DNA of 29,285 bases from an uncultured Muribaculaceae bacterium (GTDB lineage: Bacteria > Bacillota_I > Bacilli_A > RF39 > UBA660): NCBI GenBank assembly GCA_964542795.1, contig CAZIUX010000001.1, positions 1 to 29,285 on the forward strand. Direction: 5' to 3'. The stretch's first letter is position 1; each line of letters begins with the position of its first letter. Made by a program: the position numbers and the translations under genes. Of the stretch, positions 2,849-14,005 are shown one piece after another. Below the pieces are notes generated by a model, which worked only from the letters and a program-made list of their open reading frames with translations, was not told where the DNA came from and did no database searches.

Positions 2849-2876
2849 AATAAAACAGTCATATGACTGTTTTATT
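2849..2876 (-). terminator. Intrinsic terminator after the A2M-like gene
   Basis: Perfect 28-bp palindrome AATAAAACAGTC-ATAT-GACTGTTTTATT overlapping the stop codon, followed by a T-rich run on the minus strand. Confidence 0.75.
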
Positions 2877-5800
2877 CTTTAATTTGAATGTTGATTGATT
2901 TAGATACACCGTATAAACCATTGTTTTCGTAAACAACAGGTTCAAATACATAATTTCCTGGATTTTTTGTTAAAAAGTTTATTTTTACTGATTTAGAAGT
3001 ATCGCGATATGAGCATACAATAAATTGCATATTTATAGAATCATTTTTAATCAAATATATTTCTGAAAATTTTTCTTTTTCTGTTCCATAATATCTTAAT
3101 CCGTTAGGAACAGCAATATTCAAGGTTCCACAGCTATCTTTTTCTAAATTTTGCATGTTTACTAGCAAAGAATATTCATTGTTTAAACTCATATTACTAT
3201 CTATTCTAGAATCAACCTTATATACAATTTGTTCTTTATATAACTCCGATGGCGATCCAGTATATATTACTTCTGCTATGATTGAATTACTATCAGTTTT
3301 AAAGACAATATTTTTTAAGTCATCTTTACTCAATTCAATTTCTTTTGCTGACAATTTATTTAATGTGATTTTTTTATCATTTACATAAACAATATTATCT
3401 TTTTCTAAATATGGCATAGAATTATTTAAATAAGAAATGATCGCAAAATTACGATATTCATTGCTCGATTTAAGAATTGATTCAATCATACCTTTAGCTG
3501 AGTCAGGATCTATTAACGTATTTAATAAAGTTAATAATTCATAATTGTTGTTTGTTTTTTTAACACTACTCAATTCATTTTTATAAATTGATCTTGCTGT
3601 GCTATAATCTCCTAAAAATGCATATGACAATGCATAAATAATTGATTCATAATAATTTCTCTCATTGTTTTTTAAAATACTTAATTCACCCATGATTGGT
3701 TCTTTATTGCTCGCTAAAAATAATAATGCTTCGTATAGTCTTGTTTGTGCTATGTTTTCTTTACTCATTTCATAATAAGCTAAATATACAGCTCGATCAA
3801 GCCATTCTTTTTGGTATAAGTCTTTAGCATATTTATTTGTTAATGCAGATAAAACATATGATTTTTCGGAAGCTGGCAATAATTTTAGTAATCCATCTTG
3901 AAATGATTCTGGTATACTCACTTCAATTTGATTATCCTCTAGATATATTTTGTTTAAAATTTCATTCGCTGAATATCTTCCTACAAACTGATCAAGTCTT
4001 TGATAATAAGAATATTTTAAGGCGCCTATTAATCTTATATAATATTTTAATGATGAGTCAGACAATAGTAGCCTTACACTATCTTTGTTGGCATTAATAC
4101 TAATTTTATTATTATTTTTAATTTCATATTCTTTCACTATTTTTACTTTTTGATAATTATCTTTTATTTCAAAATCATATTCAACACCATCTGAATTTTT
4201 TTCGTTCGAAGCAATAACTCCAATTTTGTATTTTCCTATATTCATTTTTGGCATCTTGTAATAAGTGTATGATCCAGTTTTGCCTTCTGTTTTTCCAACT
4301 TCTTTTCCATTTAAATAATATTGATATAAGACATTTTCTTGATTAATACTTGTTGATTTAGCCGGAATAACAAAATCATCAGAAGGTTTAACGCCACTCA
4401 TTGTCGATGTTTCGACAAAAAAATCTAACTTCGAACTTATTTTTATATTAGTATTTCCTGAGTATAATTCCGGATTTGCAGATATTGCAGTTATTCTGAA
4501 TGTTGTTAATGAATCATTAAGCTTGAATTTTATTTTTGCTTTTCCATTTTTATCTGTTTTTATATTTTGAAAAATAATCGTATCCCCAAAATCGTTTCTG
4601 TATTCTCCGTCGTCAGCTCCTTCACCACCATCGCCATTTGATGAATACGGTAATAGTTGATGACTACTTACTTGATAAAACGGCAAATATTTGTCATAAA
4701 ATAATCTATTATTAATATCAATTTCATCATCTTCTAATTGAAATACTGCTTCATCGACAACACTTATTAAAACGTCTGATTCAATTCTATTTCCATTTTT
4801 ATCTTTAACTTCTATATTTAAACTCACTTCATCTTTTGGTTTATAAGTGCTTTTATCAGTTTTAAGAATAATTTCTGTTTTTCGATCATTTTCATTAAAA
4901 TCTAAGTATTGTGACTCTGCCATAATTATTTTTTCACCATCAAAATATGCACCTACAATATTTGTGCCTGGAAAAAAAGTATTAGTAAATGTTTTTTCGT
5001 TAGAATTCAGTGAATAATCAATTATTTTCTCTTTATAAAAGTAACTTAAATACAATTTATCTTTTATATCTTTTTTTTCATAGTCTTTCATTGTTGTATT
5101 AATCGTTTCATCAATGCTATATTTCATTTTTAAATTAGGATAATATGCACATAAATTTAATGAACTATTGTATGAAGAATTACCATTTATGTTATAAGAG
5201 AAATTTAGTTCACTGCCTTCATAATAGAGGTTATGCCAATAATCATTTCCTTTGTAAGGGTTATTTGAATCACTTAAATATAAAGTAGAATCAGGAGTTG
5301 TACCAAAACTTGAGTTAGCTGAAAGAGTAAATTCATAAGTTATTAATTGATTGTCATTATCAACGGTCTCATATTTTAAATTTTCAATTATTGCTTTTCC
5401 AGCATTTGTTTTAACCGAAATAATATCCCCGTCTATATTTTCACAAGTATCAATAACGCGATATTTTACTACAGTTTTATAGTAGGGATTATAATATTCA
5501 TAGTCTTTTTTACTACATACTTTTTTTCTTACGGATATCTTTACATTTGAATCAAAAGGATAAATTTCATAGCTATCTCCCTTTGAAATATCTATTTTAT
5601 TCGTTTCGATTTCAAGATAATATTTATCGTTTTTATCAAATTTAATGTTTCCATCTACAACAATGTCTTTAGATAATATTTTAATAGTTTTGAATTTTAA
5701 TCCATTATAATCTTGATAATCTTTAGAATATAATTCAATTTCACTATAATCAAATATACCATAAGTATTATATGAATTAGCTATCAAATTTAATGCGCAT

Positions 5801-7587
5801 AGCCCACTTAAATCTGTTATGCAATTATACTTTTCGCCTTCATATTCAACAACTAATTCCTTTTGTGCTGCAGGTATTCCACTCATGTGTTTCGCGACTA
5901 CTTGAACCTTAATTTCTTCACCAATATTATAATAATTTTTATTTGTAATAATTTCGTATATATATTTTGGTTTTTCATACTCCACAACATCAAAATATTT
6001 ATAGGCAATATTAATTTTATCGTATTTAAGTCTAACTGTACCATAATCTGATAACTCACTGAAATTAATTTTTGTTGTAAAAATTCCAGAGCTATTTAAT
6101 TTAATGTCATATTCTTTTTCTTCAAAAATTAATTTTAATTTACTATTATCAAAGCCATCTATAAATAATTCTTTGGGAACAAAACCCCAAATATTAATTG
6201 TATCTGTCTCCTTATAAAGTGGTTTGTCAGTATAAATATATGCATCATAATAATTATCTTGTTCAAATGTTTCTGTTTTTACAACTAACGTTTCTTCTTT
6301 ATACGATATAGTCAAATGTTTTTTATTGTTTTCTAAATTATTGATATTTGAAATAACTGCTAATCCATCTTTATCAGTTTCGATTTCTTTTCCAGCATAG
6401 TTAACTACGGCACCTTGAAGAGGAACATTGTTTTGTTTATCAATCGTCCAAACTAAAACGTCTCTTTCAGTCATTCCAGTATATGCAACAATGTTTGAAA
6501 CTTGAATTAGTTGGTTTATTTTTGGATTATCACCAATTTTATAAGAGGCAACATAATGTCCTATTGGTAAAACTTCAGGAAAAAGTATTTTTACAATTCC
6601 ATTTTGATGATCAAGCAGTTCAGTATTAAAATTTTTATATAAAGTTAAATTATCTACATTAATTTCATAATAAACATTACTTAATGAAACATATTCATTG
6701 AAACTATTTAATTTATATAGTTTTACTTCTACTTTTTCTTTTTTATAATAACTTTCTCCGTTATACCAATAATAATGATTATATACAAAGGGAACTTCTG
6801 GAATTTCATCATCCGAAAAAGTTAAACTATTATCAATATTTAAAGAAGATAGATAATAAGCATTATCATCATAAACTACGACATCGCCCGTAGTAAAGCT
6901 AAATATAAAATCTTTTTCTAAAGATTCTTCTTCGTTACTTAACTCTTTTTTTATTTTCATTGTATACACTGTGTTATATGATAATTTTTCTTTGGGTTTA
7001 AAAGTAAAAAGGCCATTATTATTTTCCCATTTCCCTGGGACGTCAAAATCAACAAAATTTTCAAAATCAATTACATCATCATGAGACAGACTAACTTGAA
7101 TTACAGTTTTGACAGATACATCTTTTGATTCGTTAGCAGGATAAGTTCTTAATACTGACAGTTTTTTTTCAGTTTGAAATGCCCATCTATTAAGAGTATT
7201 CCCTTCACGAACTGAATCTATCGAAACAATCGAATTTTCTGGAAGATTGTTTTTCGGAATTAATAAATAATTACTAGCACTTTCTTTCTTAATTGTATAT
7301 TCAATAGCGGGGCTAATAGCCAAATAATTTATTAATTCATTTTCACTAACATCTTTATTTGTTTTTATAGAAAATTTACTTTCAGTCTCAAGAAATTCAT
7401 CAATGCTGGTTGGCACGACTGATTCAATTATTCCTAAATCATTTTTAAACGCAATATAATTTTTAGTCGGTTTCTTAGTATCATAGTCAATTACTAATAA
7501 AGCAGCTATTAGGACTAGGGAAACTATTATTATAACATTCTTGTTATTTGTAACAAATCCTTTAAAATTATTGATTATATCTTTCAC
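2872..7587 (-). CDS. Membrane-anchored bacterial alpha-2-macroglobulin-like protein with N-terminal Ig-like (Big_5/SbsA-type) domains
   Basis: GTG start and N-terminal TM. Big_5-like segment (RTYP...FTFKPKEKLSYNTVYT...FSFTT). MG-domain motifs YTDKPLY, EYEKPKY and KTDKSTYKP...SVVDEAVF. A2M-domain motif GDGGEG...RNDFGDT...TDKNG...DSLTTFRITA. No CxEQ motif. Confidence 0.88.
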   Translation of the reverse strand: MKDIINNFKGFVTNNKNVIIIVSLVLIAALLVIDYDTKKPTKNYIAFKNDLGIIESVVPTSIDEFLETESKFSIKTNKDVSENELINYLAISPAIEYTIKKESASNYLLIPKNNLPENSIVSIDSVREGNTLNRWAFQTEKKLSVLRTYPANESKDVSVKTVIQVSLSHDDVIDFENFVDFDVPGKWENNNGLFTFKPKEKLSYNTVYTMKIKKELSNEEESLEKDFIFSFTTGDVVVYDDNAYYLSSLNIDNSLTFSDDEIPEVPFVYNHYYWYNGESYYKKEKVEVKLYKLNSFNEYVSLSNVYYEINVDNLTLYKNFNTELLDHQNGIVKILFPEVLPIGHYVASYKIGDNPKINQLIQVSNIVAYTGMTERDVLVWTIDKQNNVPLQGAVVNYAGKEIETDKDGLAVISNINNLENNKKHLTISYKEETLVVKTETFEQDNYYDAYIYTDKPLYKETDTINIWGFVPKELFIDGFDNSKLKLIFEEKEYDIKLNSSGIFTTKINFSELSDYGTVRLKYDKINIAYKYFDVVEYEKPKYIYEIITNKNYYNIGEEIKVQVVAKHMSGIPAAQKELVVEYEGEKYNCITDLSGLCALNLIANSYNTYGIFDYSEIELYSKDYQDYNGLKFKTIKILSKDIVVDGNIKFDKNDKYYLEIETNKIDISKGDSYEIYPFDSNVKISVRKKVCSKKDYEYYNPYYKTVVKYRVIDTCENIDGDIISVKTNAGKAIIENLKYETVDNDNQLITYEFTLSANSSFGTTPDSTLYLSDSNNPYKGNDYWHNLYYEGSELNFSYNINGNSSYNSSLNLCAYYPNLKMKYSIDETINTTMKDYEKKDIKDKLYLSYFYKEKIIDYSLNSNEKTFTNTFFPGTNIVGAYFDGEKIIMAESQYLDFNENDRKTEIILKTDKSTYKPKDEVSLNIEVKDKNGNRIESDVLISVVDEAVFQLEDDEIDINNRLFYDKYLPFYQVSSHQLLPYSSNGDGGEGADDGEYRNDFGDTIIFQNIKTDKNGKAKIKFKLNDSLTTFRITAISANPELYSGNTNIKISSKLDFFVETSTMSGVKPSDDFVIPAKSTSINQENVLYQYYLNGKEVGKTEGKTGSYTYYKMPKMNIGKYKIGVIASNEKNSDGVEYDFEIKDNYQKVKIVKEYEIKNNNKISINANKDSVRLLLSDSSLKYYIRLIGALKYSYYQRLDQFVGRYSANEILNKIYLEDNQIEVSIPESFQDGLLKLLPASEKSYVLSALTNKYAKDLYQKEWLDRAVYLAYYEMSKENIAQTRLYEALLFLASNKEPIMGELSILKNNERNYYESIIYALSYAFLGDYSTARSIYKNELSSVKKTNNNYELLTLLNTLIDPDSAKGMIESILKSSNEYRNFAIISYLNNSMPYLEKDNIVYVNDKKITLNKLSAKEIELSKDDLKNIVFKTDSNSIIAEVIYTGSPSELYKEQIVYKVDSRIDSNMSLNNEYSLLVNMQNLEKDSCGTLNIAVPNGLRYYGTEKEKFSEIYLIKNDSINMQFIVCSYRDTSKSVKINFLTKNPGNYVFEPVVYENNGLYGVSKSINIQIKE

Positions 7588-7663: not shown

Positions 7664-7686
7664 TAAAAAAAGTACCGTTAGGTACT
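7664..7686 (-). terminator. Intrinsic terminator after secG
   Basis: Minus strand AGTACC-TAAC-GGTACT followed by a T run. Confidence 0.75.
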
Positions 7687-7903
7687 AATTTACTAAAAAT
7701 AAGACTAAAGATATAACGAAGAATAATACTCCTAGTATCATTGTAATTCTACTAACTAATAAGTCAGCTCCACGTTCTTTTTGATTTTTAAATAATTCGT
7801 CATTACCACCAGTAATTATTTGACCACCATCAGTGGCTTTATTACTTTGAAGTAAAACGATCAAGATCATTAATACAGATACTATTAATAATAGAGTTTC
7901 CAT
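7685..7903 (-). CDS. secG: Preprotein translocase subunit SecG
   Basis: 72 aa, two TMs, with VLLQSNK...GG...ELFKNQKERGAD..VSRIT. Confidence 0.95.
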   Translation of the reverse strand: METLLLIVSVLMILIVLLQSNKATDGGQIITGGNDELFKNQKERGADLLVSRITMILGVLFFVISLVLFLVN

Positions 7904-7974: not shown

Positions 7975-9018
7975 TTATTTGTTTTTCATTATATAGATAT
8001 AAATCATATCAGATTTAACTATATAGAATGTAGCTTTATCATGTTCTTCAAATAACAATATTGGAAGCATAACACTGTCAGATAAGTTTAGCATCTCTTC
8101 AAAAGACGCTATTACAACGGGTTTTAGACCCTTGGTTTCAACCATATTCTTAGCTTCAATTATTATTTCATTATAATCATCTTTTATTTGATCTAATTCA
8201 TCAATAAATGGTTTTTTATCTTTTGACATCATTATTTGTTTAATTGTAATTAATATTAATAATATAGTAGTTATTGTAAGAATAATATAGGCAGTCAATT
8301 TTCTTTGCTCACGGTTAATCTTAACAATATCTTTAGAAGCAACTGATTTTTGTTCAACATTTTCTTTTAATGCATCAACATCAAATACAGACCCACCAAG
8401 AGGCATTCTTGCGATAACTGTTTGATTTTCATTTAATGAATATTTGCCATTTCCACCGTTAAATTTAACTTCTAATTTAACTTCTAGATATGCTACTGTA
8501 GGTAATGATAAAGCCATTTTAAAATTTTCAATTTCTTGATTATAAGTTTTCCAATCTAGATTAAATGTTTCACTAACATTAAATGTACTACTTGTTTGAT
8601 ATTTTTTATATTGTTCATCAATTAATACATATTCTTTTTTCCACATAATCGGATTATTTTCGGGATCATTTGGGGTTTCATTATATTGTCCATAAATAGT
8701 CGCGGTTACTTTATGTCTTTCTTCAAGATTTATTTTTTCACTTCCAGAATATTTATAATTCATAGTCATATCAATGTCATTTACTAAATTACTAATATAT
8801 GTTTCATAGCTTTTTAAATCACTAGATTTAATAAAATCATTTTCTGAAATATTGATCGTGTAGTTAACAGCACTTGAATTTGTATATATCAAATTATTTT
8901 TAGTGCTTTTTGAGTCGTCAATAATTTTTAAGACATGATAAGCATTACTTAAAAAAACAAGTATAAAAACAAATAACAATGATATATATAGTCTACGTCT
9001 AGTTTTAACACTCTTCAT
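7975..9018 (-). CDS. DUF5305-like two-TM membrane protein
   Basis: Architecture is N-terminal TM, ~200 aa extracellular domain, second TM, then a cytoplasmic tail (VVIASFEEMLNLSDSVMLPILLFEE...IYIY) resembling DUF5305. Starts in a TAATG overlap with the signal peptidase gene. Confidence 0.7.
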   Translation of the reverse strand: MKSVKTRRRLYISLLFVFILVFLSNAYHVLKIIDDSKSTKNNLIYTNSSAVNYTINISENDFIKSSDLKSYETYISNLVNDIDMTMNYKYSGSEKINLEERHKVTATIYGQYNETPNDPENNPIMWKKEYVLIDEQYKKYQTSSTFNVSETFNLDWKTYNQEIENFKMALSLPTVAYLEVKLEVKFNGGNGKYSLNENQTVIARMPLGGSVFDVDALKENVEQKSVASKDIVKINREQRKLTAYIILTITTILLILITIKQIMMSKDKKPFIDELDQIKDDYNEIIIEAKNMVETKGLKPVVIASFEEMLNLSDSVMLPILLFEEHDKATFYIVKSDMIYIYIMKNK

Positions 9019-10199
9019 TATCTTACACCTTCTTCTACTTTTATTCCTCTAAATTGTTCTAAAAAATCTCTAAATATTATTGTTGGATATCCTACTTTAG
9101 GAATATTAAAAATTACTTTGCCGGTTATTTGATCTTCATATACTGGATCTGAATCTTTTTTTAGATTATTATCTCCCTTTGTTGTATATACTAATCCTTT
9201 ATTGGTATTCTTAACATTTATTATTCTATGAACTACATAAATATTGTTTTTCTTATACTCAATTATATCATTAATTTTTACTGAGTTATAATTTTTTTTA
9301 ATAATAATTACCATGTCTCCTCTTCTAATGTTTGGATACATACTATTACTAACTATAACTGTTGGCATGAACGGTAATAATCGAGTAGAAAAACACAATA
9401 ATACTAGTAATAGAAGCACTAATAAAAGTCTTTTAATCTTTACTTTCGTGTCATCAAATAAAGGTAAACCTAATCTTTTATATTTGCTAAAGATTTTTTC
9501 AATATTAATATATGCAAATAAAGGTGTTAAATAATCAATAATTACAAGGATAAAAAAGATATTATTAGGAAATATTGGTGTAATAATACTAACTAATTTA
9601 ATTATTAATATATATATTAAACTAGATACATAGCCATCCTTAACAGCTAAATATGTTAAGAAAATATTTAATGCTGCAAGTGGCATGAATGTCTTAATAA
9701 AATATTCTATAAATGTAGAGAAACTTTGAATTGATGCTGAAAAATTATTATATGATACATCGGAAAAAATCATAATAATTGTAATAAGTATATAAATAAT
9801 TTTTCTATTCTTGTAATTAGTATTTTTAACAAAGTAATTTCTTACGATTTCTCTTGGAACAAAAAAGCTTAATATCCACCAAGAATTCTTGACTAGTCCA
9901 AGAATAGATCTATCAAAACCGCTTTTTGTATATCCTATTACTATTCCAATAGAATAATAAATAATTACATATACTAAAACAGAAATGAGAGTAAATTCTC
10001 TTACATCTTTAGTTTTAAAACTAAATGTTTTCTTTCTATTAAATGTAAACAAGTAAATAATTCCTAATATAAATACCCAAATTATTGGTCTTATGTAGTA
10101 AATATAATTATTTCCGTATTGCCAAAAAAGCATTGGAGTTATAGCCCCAAAGATAAATACAAAAAATAATGAGTAATAAATCATTGTTTTGTTTTTCAT
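9018..10199 (-). CDS. sipW: ER-type (SipW/SEC11-like) signal peptidase I fused to an N-terminal polytopic membrane domain
   Basis: C-terminal SNSMYP (Ser286), VVHRII (His324 general base rather than Lys) and TKGDNN..D. Residues ~1-250 contain multiple hydrophobic helices. Confidence 0.88.
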   Translation of the reverse strand: MKNKTMIYYSLFFVFIFGAITPMLFWQYGNNYIYYIRPIIWVFILGIIYLFTFNRKKTFSFKTKDVREFTLISVLVYVIIYYSIGIVIGYTKSGFDRSILGLVKNSWWILSFFVPREIVRNYFVKNTNYKNRKIIYILITIIMIFSDVSYNNFSASIQSFSTFIEYFIKTFMPLAALNIFLTYLAVKDGYVSSLIYILIIKLVSIITPIFPNNIFFILVIIDYLTPLFAYINIEKIFSKYKRLGLPLFDDTKVKIKRLLLVLLLLVLLCFSTRLLPFMPTVIVSNSMYPNIRRGDMVIIIKKNYNSVKINDIIEYKKNNIYVVHRIINVKNTNKGLVYTTKGDNNLKKDSDPVYEDQITGKVIFNIPKVGYPTIIFRDFLEQFRGIKVEEGVR

Positions 10200-10209
10200 A
10201 GCTATATCC

Positions 10210-10779
10210 TTAATTGATTATTATATTATAATAAAAATATTGTGTAACTCCAAATACATTATATTGAACTGTTGTTTTTAAACTGCTTGGTGTAGTAGCT
10301 TTGTTATTATTAAAACTAAAGTTCGTTGTAAAAGAACCCGTAGATCCTGGCATAATCGTTGTTTGAGTTAGTGAAGAACCTGTAACAGTCAGTGTAGATC
10401 CAGCTATCTTTTGAGTAGACACAATACCATTAGTCATTTTATATGCATATGAATTAGTAAAATTTATGGTTAATGATGCAGTATATATGCCGTTTTTTTT
10501 ATTGGCTTTAATAAAATTAACTGTAAGATTATTTCCGGATAAATTTTCATTTTGAAAAAGTGCTCCACTAGGAAGTGATCCTGCAGTATACCTTCCTCCA
10601 GTTTGAGATAACGATATATTAAGTTGATCACCTGTTATAGGCGAAACGGTATAAACAGAGCCATTTATTCCTAATTGCTCACTAAAAAGACTATATCCCA
10701 CTGTAATAAGTAATAATACTATTACTATAGATATAGTATAATAGGGAATTAACTTTTTCTTCTTTCTTCTTAACTTCAT
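10210..10779 (-). CDS. Exported protein with a SipW-class signal peptide (probable start 10779, 189 aa)
   Basis: MKLRRKKKK..YY, hydrophobic stretch, then TVGYSLFSEQLGINGS. Mature part is S/T/N/G-rich and beta-type. SD-like AAGAGG precedes ATG 10779 (ORF track start was 10827). Confidence 0.75.
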   Translation of the reverse strand: MKLRRKKKKLIPYYTISIVIVLLLITVGYSLFSEQLGINGSVYTVSPITGDQLNISLSQTGGRYTAGSLPSGALFQNENLSGNNLTVNFIKANKKNGIYTASLTINFTNSYAYKMTNGIVSTQKIAGSTLTVTGSSLTQTTIMPGSTGSFTTNFSFNNNKATTPSSLKTTVQYNVFGVTQYFYYNIIIN

Positions 10780-10839
10780 AATTCCTCTTAAAAAAACCAA
10801 CATAAAGATTAATCTTATGTTGGTCAACTAAATGTAATC

Positions 10840-11346
10840 TTAAGGAGCTTGTTCGTAATCTAATGTTACTGAATAATTAACTGTTTTGTTTCCGGTTTCT
10901 GAAGCCAATTTCCAAGTTACAGTAATTTCAAAATCAAATGTGCCACTTGCCGCAATTGTTTGCCCATTAGTAATGGCAGGGGCTATATCAACTTGAATAT
11001 CTGGATCATTATTTCCAGTAACAGCAATATTAGTAAGTAATGCATCCACGTTTCCAACATTTGAAACAGTTACATCATAGGTTACTGTTGCACCCGGTTT
11101 TAATAATGTTGGTGCCGCAAGCGTTAATGTGTTTTTATCTCCAGATATTGTTGCGGTGGGTGTCCCAGCTTGAAATGACGATCCAACCGTTGCACTAGTA
11201 AACTCTAGATCAAAGTTCCCAGATGCAGTAAATGTTCCTGAAATATTTAACACATCAGCAAATAATGCATATCCTACTGATAAAGTTACTACAACTGCAA
11301 CTAATATAAGTATGTAATATTTTCGATCAGTTTTTTTTCTTTTCAT
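10840..11346 (-). CDS. TasA/camelysin/BsaA-like exported protein with a SipW-class signal peptide
   Basis: MKRKK..RKYY, hydrophobic stretch, then SVGYALFADVLNISGT. Contains PG..VTYDVTVSNVG.VDA and ends in the beta-strand VTLDYEQ. Strong SD AAGGAG. Confidence 0.78.
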   Translation of the reverse strand: MKRKKTDRKYYILILVAVVVTLSVGYALFADVLNISGTFTASGNFDLEFTSATVGSSFQAGTPTATISGDKNTLTLAAPTLLKPGATVTYDVTVSNVGNVDALLTNIAVTGNNDPDIQVDIAPAITNGQTIAASGTFDFEITVTWKLASETGNKTVNYSVTLDYEQAP

Positions 11347-11372
11347 TTTTTATTTCTCCTTATCTTAATCAC

Positions 11373-11394
11373 ATTATATCAAATTAGTTGTCAA
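11373..11394 (-). promoter_or_regulatory. Putative promoter of the SipW cassette (extended -10)
   Basis: TG-a-TATAAT (11381-11373). A perfect TTGACA (11394-11389) lies only 10 nt upstream of the -10 hexamer. Confidence 0.55.
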
Positions 11395-11457: not shown

Positions 11458-11883
11458 TTAGACTCTTTTTATTTCTCTTTTTAAATCTCTTTCTTTAATT
11501 ACAGCTCTTTTATCGTATAATTTTTTACCTTTGGCAAGACCAATTAATAATTTTGCTCTTCCATTTTTTATATACATTTTTAAAGGGATAATATTATATC
11601 CATCTTGAGATGTCCCTTCTTTAAGTTTTTTTATTTCATTTTTATTTAAAAGTAGTTTTCTTTCTCTTGTTTCTGAATGATTAAATCTATTGCCTTCTTC
11701 ATATTTTGAAATATGCATATTAATAACGAATGCTTCATCGTTTTTTATTCTAATATATGAATCTTTAAGATTAACACTGCCTTTTCTTATGGATTTTATT
11801 TCTGTTCCAAGCAATACTAATCCTGATTCATATTCTTCTTCAATGAAGTAATCAAAATATGCTTTTCTATTCTTTACTTCCAT
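11458..11883 (-). CDS. smpB: SsrA-binding protein SmpB
   Basis: [34 protein letters not shown]; overlaps the rnr end. Confidence 0.98.
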
Positions 11884-12922
11884 TTATATCACCATCTTCA
11901 AATAACTCAAAATCTATTTCTCCTGTTTCTTTAGTGGCTTTTACAGTTCTAACTTTAACTTTGTCTCCTAAACGATATCTCTTACCATGAGATGCCCCAC
12001 TTATTGTATGTTTAGTTTCATCGAAAGAATATTCATCATCAACAAGTGTTGATTGATGTACTAATCCTTCTACTAAATTATCAAGAGAAACAAAGAAACC
12101 AAATCCCATAACACCAGAGATTGTTCCTTCAAATACTTCTCCAATATGTTTAGACATATATTCAGCCATTTTCATGTCTAATACTTCTCTTTCAGAATCA
12201 ATTGCCGCTTGTTCTCTTAAGCTTGAATTATCCGCGATGAATGTTACTTTTTTATCTACACCTTTTGTATTTAAATCATTATAAATAACATATTTTCTTA
12301 ATAATCGATGTACAGTTAGATCTGGGTATCTTCTTATTGGACTAGTAAAATGAGTATAACAAGTAGACGCTAATCCAAAGTGCCCGATATTTTCTTTAGT
12401 ATATAAAGCTTTTCTCATACTACGAAGCAATAATGAAGATAAGATATTTTTATTATCTAATTCATTAACCGCATTTAAGATTTTTTGAATTGTCTTTGGT
12501 TCATAATTAGTTATTTTCTCTTCTATTTTATAACCGAAAGAGGAAGCAGTAGTTAAAAATTCTTCTACTTTTTCTGGGCTTGGTTTTTCATGAGTACGAT
12601 ATATAAATGGTAAATTCTTATTGAATATATGAGTTGCTACTGTTTCATTTGCCGCAATCATAAAGTCTTCAATTAACATTTCCCCATCTTCTCTTGTTCT
12701 AAGAACAATATCTATTGCTTCGTTATTTTTATTTACCATTACTTTAGGTTCTTGCATGTCAAAATCAAGATTACCTCGTAAGTCTTTGTTTTTTCTTAAT
12801 ATTTTAGCTAATTTATTCATTAATAATAATTTATCTTTATATTGTTCATATTCTGGATCAATAATATTTCTAATTAATAAATCATTAACTTTTTTATATG
12901 TCATTTGAATTCTTGATTTAAT
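11867..12922 (-). pseudogene. rnr: Ribonuclease R, C-terminal part (RNB C-half plus S1 domain)
   Basis: Frame opens as IKSRIQ-MTYKKVN (ATG 12904). Contains LIEDFMIAANE, YTHFTSPIRRYPDL.VHR and S1 (GFFV.L..EGLVH). Out of frame with the N-terminal part. Confidence 0.9.
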
Positions 12923-13941
12923 ATAGATTTGAACAATTTATCATCAATATCCATAATACAAGACATAGAAAGTCTTAATACACCAGGATTTAAAGAACAT
13001 ATTCCATTAGATAATTTATGAGGCAACATTGGAATAACAGAATCCGCTAAATAAGCGCTTGTGCCTCTTTTTAAGGCTTCTTTATCTAAAGGACTATTTT
13101 CTGTTACATAATGGCTTACATCGGCAATGTGTACTCCTAAACGATAGATATTACCAACCATTTCAATACTTAAAGCATCATCTATATCTTTAGTATCATC
13201 TCCATCAATTGTAAAAATTATTTCATTAGTTAAATCTTTTCTTCCTTTAAGTTCACTTTCAAAAACTTCATTTGGAATATTATCGGTTTGGGCCATTACT
13301 TCATCATTAAATTCTTCATCAAAACCGTATCTTAAAGCAATTGATTTAATATCCACTCCAGGATCATTTTTATGGCCAATTATTTTAATTATTTTAGCTA
13401 CATAACTAGTGTTGTTTTTTTCTTTAATCATTTCGATTTTAACTTTTGTTCCATCAACACAGTCTTTTATTTTTGAATCTTTAATTAATATCTTTAAATT
13501 TTTTCTTTCATCATCTAAGATCGCATAAGCTTTGTTTTTTTCAAATTTAATTTCAGCAACTAAATTATTTAAATCTCTTTTAATAATTTTTAATATTTTT
13601 CCACTATTATTTTTCTTTTCAACAGAGGAAAGAACAATATCTCCATCAACTGCTCCATTAATAAATGGCATAGGGATAAACAAATCTTCTTTAAAATCTG
13701 AATTCACAACAAACCCATAGCCCTTTTTATTTAATGTTAGTTTACCAGTTCTATAATAGTCATTTTTTGAAAATAGCATATATTTATTCTTATTAGTTTT
13801 ATATATTTTATATTCACTCTCTAATTCATCTAAAAAAAACTGTATTGCTTTTTCATCTTTTTCACTTAAGGAATTAGAGATGTCTAAAACAGTCATCTTT
13901 TTATCGGTATTTTTTAATATTTCAAGTATCTTTTCTTTCAT
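12901..13941 (-). pseudogene. rnr: Ribonuclease R, N-terminal part (HTH, cold-shock domains, start of RNB); probable start 13941
   Basis: SD AGGAG before MKEKILE. Contains GYGFV, TIDGDDTKDIDDA, VHIADVSHYV and RGTSAYL...PMLP..LSNGICSLNP. Stops at TGA soon after MDIDDKLFKS. Confidence 0.9.
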
Positions 13942-14005
13942 AATTATCTCCTGTTTTGATTTTATCATACTTTTTTATTAAAAAGATAATTAAAATTGTG
14001 TACAT

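Follow-up and report, generated by a model that had tools for sequence, protein, structure and literature searches.

We describe a compact cassette of four genes that is likely to be an AbpX-type fibre operon of the TasA superfamily. It lies at 7975-11394 of a 29,285-nucleotide stretch of DNA (hereafter the window; contig CAZIUX010000001.1, positions 1 to 29,285, GenBank assembly GCA_964542795.1) from an uncultured bacterium of the GTDB lineage Bacillota_I; Bacilli_A; RF39; UBA660. The cassette consists of four co-oriented open reading frames (ORFs) on the minus strand, g1 to g4, between smpB and secG. The first two encode small signal-anchored proteins that we read as a major and a minor fibre subunit, g3 encodes a signal peptidase fused to a polytopic membrane domain, and g4 a DUF5305 protein. 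A sequence-only reading of the same DNA, made without database searches, had proposed a SipW-type filament cassette with two TasA-like subunits and had called the system uncharacterised. The TasA-like assignment stands at the level of the superfamily, through homology to AbpX, but the subunits miss the cut-offs of the TasA/camelysin and SipW-cognate hidden Markov models (HMMs). As a type, the system can no longer be called uncharacterised, since a preprint of January 2026 describes AbpX-like loci in Bacillota, Chloroflexota and archaea; in most of these, further genes code for a minor subunit resembling AbpX, for a signal peptidase I that has ten membrane helices and for an accessory protein of the DUF5305 type (bioRxiv 10.64898/2026.01.04.697558). 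With the locus type already described, the cassette is most likely a further system of the AbpX/TasA kind and not a new one.

Probable fibre subunits of the AbpX branch

The profile of the g1 family was compared with all sequences of the Protein Data Bank (PDB), and AbpX was the first match both with a 21-sequence profile (PDB 9sj2, E 6.9e-4), whose alignment begins at mature AbpX residue 2 opposite F29 of g1, and with a 108-sequence profile (9sj2, E 5.9e-7, 32.6 bits, query residues 28-153 to chain residues 3-141). The self-complemented AbpX monomer (9rhp) was second with the larger profile (E 1.9e-6), and TasA was not among the PDB matches at E≤1. On this sequence evidence, the subunits are placed in the AbpX branch and not in TasA proper. 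AbpX polymerises without a chaperone through an N-terminal donor strand that buries W2, L6, L8, A10 and I12 and binds calcium through E4, and its homologues keep an aromatic residue at position 2, an acid at position 4 and an isoelectric point (pI) of about 4 (10.64898/2026.01.04.697558).

The N-termini of both g1 and g2 carry a Lys/Arg-rich stretch, YY, a hydrophobic segment and the motif VGY[AS]LF[AS][DE]xLxIxG. This shared pattern, already pointed out by the sequence-only reading, goes by its conservation far beyond chance, because it is the best-conserved segment of the family: across 108 aligned g1 homologues, residues 25-46 reach 2.78 bits per column, compared with 1.82 for the core. The accompanying remark that the two proteins share little obvious similarity beyond their N-termini did not hold, as g2 is a full-length, divergent paralogue of g1 that is homologous over the whole domain (hhalign probability 98.6%, E 5e-16, 154 columns). 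A word-based homologue search with g2 recovered only g2 itself; its orthologues were gathered by locus position instead (22-44% identity), and the g2 profile gave nothing significant against the PDB. For g1, 20 close homologues were found at 47-62% identity, none of them with a Pfam domain or a name, and an exhaustive profile search recovered 5,936 representatives at E≤1e-3, of which 1,370 also pass E≤1e-10. The members that were looked up are annotated as hypothetical and come from metagenome-assembled genomes (MAGs) of Bacilli and Clostridia. In the 108-member alignment, N96 and Q166 are invariant (108/108) and Y164 and W145 nearly so; the C-terminal Y-x-Q motif of g1 may line the acceptor groove.

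The AlphaFold2 (AF2) model of g1 (predicted local distance difference test, pLDDT, 87) has a membrane helix at residues 6-33 and a beta-sandwich from residue 47. Residues 33-39 are unstructured (pLDDT <50), and the monomer model has no strand before residue 47. Its Sec signal anchor carries the cleavage motif G-Y-A, and the cut is predicted after A27. G25, Y26 and A27 are almost invariant (G25 in 96 and A27 in 105 of the 108 homologues), and we infer a type I cleavage site after A27 from the fit of small residues at -3 and -1. After the cut, conservation in the family is high at F29, L33, I35, G37 and A39 and low at the positions in between. The predicted mature g1 starts with L1 F2 A3 D4 V5 L6 N7 I8 S9 G10 T11 F12 and the predicted mature g2 with L F S E Q L G I N G S V; among the 108 homologues, 90 have F at mature position 2, 62 have E or D at position 4, 81 have L at position 6 and 89 have I at position 8. 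The 19-residue N-terminal extension of the predicted mature g1 is a putative donor strand, through which g1 would polymerise by donor-strand exchange; the conserved strand matches the donor strand of the solved AbpX fibril position by position. At the motif level the cleavage region of g1 (Y-A/L-F-A-D, the slash marking the cut) resembles that of TasA, which is W-A/A-F-N-D. The predicted mature g1 is acidic (pI 4.05, D+E 9.9%), as are the 20 close homologues (pI 4.05-4.39). The predicted mature g2 is basic (pI 9.5), so that acidity holds for the major subunit only.

If the N-terminal helix were instead retained, g1 and g2 could be type IV pilin-like or otherwise signal-anchored proteins and g3 would act on other substrates. 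The top Foldseek PDB match of the full-length g1 model is indeed an archaeal type IV pilus subunit (8q30, E 3e-3), a match driven by the long N-terminal helix together with the sandwich, and the archaeal type IV pilus 8fk7 reaches Z 5.7. We regard this explanation as very improbable: the 108 N-termini contain no class III signal (G/A at -1 before the hydrophobic stretch, conserved E5), the cassettes examined contain no prepilin peptidase or pilus ATPase, the small residues G25 and A27 fit a type I site, and an S26 peptidase always accompanies the genes.

Several points weigh against g1 and g2 as AbpX-type fibre subunits. None of the three HMMs of the classical families is reached: the TasA/camelysin model PF12389 gives E 0.27 and 11.5 bits for g1 (cut-off 22.5) and no match for g2, the SipW-cognate signal model TIGR04088 has no match at E≤1 for either protein, and the BsaA-family model TIGR04090 gives 15 bits (cut-off 60); the first two had been named by the sequence-only reading as checks on the subunits. 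The AbpX match itself is modest in bits and owes part of its score to a beta-sandwich motif, PG...NxG, to which PmoB domains match as well (23 bits). Fold searches of the g1 model (Foldseek PDB, VIA-align wide and a VIA-align second look) returned generic beta-sandwich matches only (Z ≤7.2). The TasA fibre 8aur (Foldseek E 0.013, TM 0.33) is counted among these generic matches, the 0406 thread scored Z 5.8 and AbpX was not among the listed matches, so fold comparison cannot separate AbpX from TasA from CARDB. Judged by alignment, the calcium site of AbpX is only partly kept: ligand E4 corresponds to D31 of g1, D18 to D46, which is invariant among the close homologues, and D46 or D48 to D70, but E52 aligns with an invariant N72, D48 falls in or beside an insert and E142 lies beyond the aligned range. 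The acidic content of g1 (D+E) is about 10%, compared with about 15% in AbpX. The fibre, the cleavage site and the polymer of the g1 family are predictions, the locus has no gene for a cell-wall or membrane anchor, and the strand conserved after the cut might not be a donor strand but a feature by which the peptidase recognises its substrate.

The last of these points leads to the alternative that g1 and g2 do not polymerise but act as proteins of a single domain, secreted or bound to the surface (for instance as a coat, an adhesin or a binding protein), and are served by a dedicated SipW-type peptidase that recognises the strand after the cut. We hold this to be possible though unlikely. The fold of g1 is a generic Ig/CARDB-like sandwich, its relatives are annotated as hypothetical, and the SipW-cognate signal class (TIGR04088) is also conserved beyond the cut. 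Against this, the nearest solved relative, AbpX, is a donor-strand fibre that aligns with g1 from the donor strand on, and the conservation of hydrophobic residues at i and i+2 is typical of a buried strand face, yet the segment is unstructured in the monomer model. The architecture of longer family members also speaks against this alternative, as a g1-like module stands N-terminally in many long proteins, which is expected of plug-in tip or anchor subunits.

About one third of the 150 best g1-family matches are proteins of 340-1,082 aa with the g1-like module at the N-terminus, and in a few giant proteins of the search the central motif is repeated 14-18 times. Larger surface proteins seem to reuse the short subunit module as a plug-in.

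A fused signal peptidase and a DUF5305 protein, its probable partner

The claim of a SipW-type signal peptidase was borne out for g3 at the level of the archaeal/ER-type (endoplasmic reticulum-type) signal peptidase I class, as it scores 94.9 bits with TIGR02228 (cut-off 51.85); g3 is not the equivalog of Bacillus SipW (NF046067, 66 bits against a cut-off of 190). The Ser, His and Asp residues S286, H324, D343 and D349 are invariant in 20 g3 homologues. The AF2 model (pLDDT 81) shows nine membrane helices, then an S26 domain and then a C-terminal helix; the peptidase part starts at about residue 256, and the first 245 or so residues are polytopic. With the N-terminus inside and nine spans, the catalytic domain would lie outside, as a signal peptidase needs. 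The S26 part matches SipA (Z 12.4) and chain 7p2q_A of the human signal peptidase complex (Z 11.7).

Residues 2-240 of g3 align by VIA-align with SpdC (6u0o, Z 12.3 over 224 residues) and with Rce1 (4cad, Z 12.0 over 218 residues). The next helical match reaches Z 6.8, and Z below about 13 in helical bundles can reflect a common arrangement. The modelled comparison points to a CPBP/Abi-like fold for the N-terminal domain. The polytopic domain had no CPBP or other Pfam match at E≤1 in 20 g3 members, and the CPBP catalytic motifs EExxxR, FxxxH and HxxxN are not kept as a full set, with only E117-x-x-R120 and N105 invariant. As there are no conserved histidines (20 sequences), the domain is probably non-catalytic, and we read it as probably a scaffold like SpdC. 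In the literature searched, no paper joins SipW and CPBP, and a fusion of this domain to a signal peptidase was not found.

The DUF5305 assignment of g4, which the sequence-only reading had put up for checking with PF17231, is clear (62.7 bits against a cut-off of 29, E 4.3e-17), and the DUF5305 clusters of the Atlas score 0.97 for g4. Hydropathy gives hydrophobic segments at 8-34 and 239-265, and the predicted topology of membrane helix 8-34, outside domain, membrane helix 239-265 and cytoplasmic tail matches that published for DUF5305 proteins, with an outside domain, two membrane helices and a cytoplasmic domain (10.64898/2026.01.04.697558). In a DUF5305-containing archaeal locus, the peptidase TafD is required for the processing of TafA (PMC11821415). 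g4 is probably an accessory subunit of peptidase g3, a role that suits it better than that of a fibre anchor, as proposed earlier (10.64898/2026.01.04.697558; PMC11821415).

Proposed mechanism

In the mechanism that we favour, the g1 and g2 precursors would enter the membrane through Sec as signal-anchored proteins, and g3, with its Ser-His-Asp set and aided by g4 as its accessory subunit, would cut them after the G-Y-A motif. Once free, the N-terminal strand of each subunit would fill the groove of the next by donor-strand complementation, and bound calcium may assist strand insertion. The product would be a thin, acidic, chaperone-free fibre made mostly of g1, with a few copies of the basic g2 to initiate it or to form its tip or base, and the terminator after g1 would keep the g1:g2 ratio high. 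In the communities of anaerobic digesters and the gut, such a fibre would probably be used for adhesion or to build a matrix.

A more speculative extension, to which we give only a small chance, is that g3 and the DUF5305 protein form a membrane assembly platform that couples cleavage of the signal anchor to strand insertion, loosely like the eukaryotic signal peptidase complex, with the fibre growing from its base. The newest subunit, tethered by its uncleaved signal anchor, would accept the strand of the previous subunit; cleavage would then free its own strand into the next precursor, and a separate anchor gene would be unneeded. If true, such a platform would account for a locus reduced to four genes and for the fact that AbpX-type subunits are strictly paired with this type of peptidase.

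Transcription of the cassette

Four anaerobic-digester metatranscriptome runs contain the locus. The word depth of their contigs, which carry no strand information and give a rough measure only, was 98, 33, 50 and 52 for g1, compared with 2-8 for g2 to g4, 0-9 for smpB and 0 for secG, a 7- to 40-fold drop in RNA depth after g1. Because uniform carry-over of DNA cannot yield such a pattern, g1 RNA dominates the locus in situ. The upstream ends of the high-depth g1 contigs lie at 11307-11358, just downstream of the -10 element, and are adapter-capped at 11320, 11350 and 11358. A hairpin followed by a T-run stands directly after the g1 stop codon in 11 of 15 related loci, although the sequences are unrelated, and it is likely an attenuator that sets the ratio of major to minor subunit. 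The homology of g1 to AbpX, its dominant RNA and the paralogy of g2 together support the earlier view of g1 as the major and g2 as the minor subunit. A major/minor pair with strongly differing RNA levels also fits a polymer better than it fits the non-polymerising proteins considered above.

The downstream end of the high-depth g1 contig falls at 10839-10844 in three of the four metatranscriptomes, in one of them with adapter sequence attached. These ends coincide with the stop codon of g1 and precede the terminator hairpin by about 15 nt instead of following it; they may mark a processing site, a block of reverse transcription at the hairpin or a strain break.

Layout of the locus

The layout described by the sequence-only reading was confirmed, namely the four co-oriented genes flanked by smpB and secG, the extended -10 promoter and the TAATG overlap, which joins the g3 stop to the g4 start at 9020..9016 (Table 1). 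A TTGACA was considered as the -35 element of the g1 promoter and rejected: it lies only 10 nt from the -10 element and leaves no usable -35, so the promoter is of the extended -10 type. A TTG start at 10827 for g2 was likewise rejected, as it would cross the terminator hairpin and the orthologues align from the ATG at 10779.

Table 1. Features of the cassette and its flanks, in window coordinates
Feature	Position	Strand	Evidence
g1, putative major fibre subunit (168 aa)	11346..10840	minus	AbpX match, conservation, pI, RNA depth
g2, putative minor subunit (189 aa)	10779..10210	minus	hhalign paralogy with g1, positional orthologues, pI
g3, fused peptidase (393 aa)	10199..9018	minus	TIGR02228
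g3 N-terminal domain (about residues 1-245), eight predicted membrane helices	9465..10199	minus	AF2 model, VIA-align
g3 C-terminal part, ninth predicted membrane helix and S26 signal peptidase I domain	9018..9464	minus	TIGR02228, invariant residues, VIA-align
g4, DUF5305 protein (347 aa)	9018..7975	minus	PF17231, hydropathy
Extended -10 promoter TGaTATAAT upstream of g1	11381..11373	minus	sequence read
Intrinsic-terminator-like hairpin and T-run between g1 and g2	10788..10825	minus	stem of 12-13 pairs; about -12 kcal/mol for 10825..10795
smpB, upstream flank	11883..11458	minus	PF01668, E 5.9e-59
secG, downstream flank	7903..7685	minus	PF03840, E 1.1e-17

Two further features of the flanks were seen in the window, both on the minus strand. 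RNase R is split into two ORFs (355 and 345 aa; 11867-13968) that overlap at 12901-12904, which could be a frameshift or an assembly error and had also been pointed out by the sequence-only reading. A 1,571-aa membrane-anchored protein, which that reading took for an alpha-2-macroglobulin without a thioester, is encoded directly downstream of secG (2872-7587).

Conservation of the cassette and its host

Sixteen related loci were found through g1 in species-representative genomes, among them Mollicutes, Mycoplasmatota and Bacilli MAGs. The fused g3-like peptidase adjoins the subunit genes in 15 of the 16 and a DUF5305 gene in 14, and the loci that lack one or the other end at contig edges. The synteny survey suggested by the sequence-only reading thus shows the four genes conserved as a unit (15/16) in differing flanks. 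Loci on metagenome contigs have the same order beside a photolyase gene, beside secA and hpf, or beside a two-component system. Each locus has about two to five g1-like paralogues. Within the host's order, a g1-family match was found in 84 of 199 genomes and in 49 of 99 genera, with up to 18 matches per genome.

The host assembly is 0.9 Mb in size, with 27% G+C and 77% completeness. It encodes penicillin-binding proteins, four Mur ligases and a sortase; a wall-less host was therefore rejected and the cell taken to be walled. The assembly has five archaeal-type S26 peptidases and none of the LepB type. Dependence of the lineage on SipW-type peptidases only was considered and rejected, since a LepB-type peptidase scores over the cut-off in 40 of 40 relatives that are at least 95% complete, and the absence in the host is most likely an assembly gap in the missing 23%.

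With a LepB-type peptidase probably present in the host, the subunits might be cut by this housekeeping enzyme, leaving g3 and g4 for another role such as quality control or regulation. We consider this highly unlikely. The g1-type genes co-occur strictly with the fused peptidase, and the other SipW-type peptidases of the host sit beside their own candidate substrates, which supports one peptidase per substrate set. SipW and TasA are a precedent for a dedicated peptidase. The TafD/TafA pair is another (PMC11821415).

Three more SipW-type clusters were seen in the host genome. One pairs a plain SipW-type peptidase with a 192-aa protein that has a TFAYFT signal motif and lies just below the Peptidase_M73/camelysin cut-off (E 6.4e-4, 20 bits against 22.5; contig C3:10940-12362, L033). 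Another brings a plain peptidase together with McrBC-like parts, as it includes a McrB-like AAA_5 protein of 522 aa and a DUF2357 protein, besides two proteins of some 350 aa whose signal motif is SYAWF (contig C49:1-6755, L031); in a relative, a similar peptidase-like and DUF2357 set stands directly downstream of an AbpX-type cassette (L010:11410-16501). The remaining one places a peptidase beside a 2,481-aa protein with an N-terminal SYAWF motif and beside two small proteins without family matches (contig C6:10610-19888, L032). A more distant cassette (L014:1-9112) has a peptidase 26% identical to g3, a HisKA_3/GerE two-component pair and two subunit-like genes nearby, one of them with a faint Peptidase_M73 match, and ties the fused peptidase type to camelysin-like proteins too.

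Novelty and significance

What is specific to the cassette is its minimal form of four genes with no anchor, a minor subunit that is basic, the terminator conserved behind g1 and the metatranscriptome evidence. Fibres of the TasA superfamily are an emerging cross-domain route to biofilm matrices. The handful studied so far includes none from the small-genome Bacilli, which are widespread in digesters, the rumen and the gut. A compact four-gene locus that is transcribed in situ offers a convenient test case for whether bacterial AbpX-like proteins polymerise without a chaperone, what the polytopic domain of g3 and the DUF5305 protein do, and how a fibre is retained without an anchor gene. A firm function for the g1 family would spread widely, given its thousands of representatives with hypothetical annotations.

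Comparison with known systems

The best solved sequence relative of g1 is AbpX of Pyrodictium abyssi (PDB 9SJ2, 9RHP). Like AbpX, g1 and g2 have an aromatic residue at mature position 2, an acidic one at position 4 and hydrophobic ones at positions 6 and 8 (F29, D31, L33 and I35 in g1), with F39 in g1 and V in g2 at position 12; mature g1 is likewise acidic, and its N-terminal extension is unstructured in the monomer, for g1 according to the AF2 model. The gene content agrees with that of AbpX-like loci, as a minor subunit related to AbpX, an archaeal-type signal peptidase I with many helices and a probable accessory protein of the DUF5305 type are all encoded. Unlike AbpX, g1 and g2 have Gly at mature position 10 in place of Ala, only part of the calcium set and a lower acidic content are found, and the minor subunit is basic. 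The fibre of AbpX has been solved, whereas that of the present cassette is a prediction, and the cassette belongs to an anaerobic-digester bacterium whose genome measures 0.9-1.2 Mb. Other bacterial AbpX-like loci differ in turn from the four-gene form, which is without their reported SLH or LPXTG anchor, tip protein and regulators.

The Tat-fimbriae (tafi) locus of Haloarcula hispanica (PMC11821415, PMC12337348) is similar in that its donor-strand subunit is encoded together with TafD, a multi-helix S26 peptidase dedicated to it, and with the DUF5305 protein TafG. Its subunits use Tat signals, whereas those of g1 and g2 are Lys/Arg-rich and Sec-type without a twin-arginine motif, and TafD, with four membrane helices, is extended by a further domain at its C-terminus, where g3 has its CPBP-like domain at the N-terminus.

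With the TapA-SipW-TasA system of Bacillus subtilis (PDB 8AUR; PMC9674648, PMC10151520) the cassette shares a dedicated ER/archaeal-type peptidase encoded with the fibre subunits, a cut after aromatic-Ala and before x-F-x-[DE], and a G-T-[LF]-D strand about 14 residues on. Assembly by an N-terminal donor strand and a low-abundance partner that donates a strand, both proposed for the cassette, are further likenesses. In contrast to TasA, g1 does not reach PF12389, and its mature form has 141 residues compared with 234; in contrast to the 190-aa SipW, g3 is a 393-aa fusion, and a DUF5305 partner stands in place of TapA. For the polytopic domain of g3, the closest known folds are those predicted to be alike, SpdC (LyrA) of Staphylococcus aureus and Rce1. 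SpdC also is without the full set of catalytic motifs, whereas g3 differs from both in having no sequence-level CPBP match in its 20 members and in being fused to a signal peptidase.

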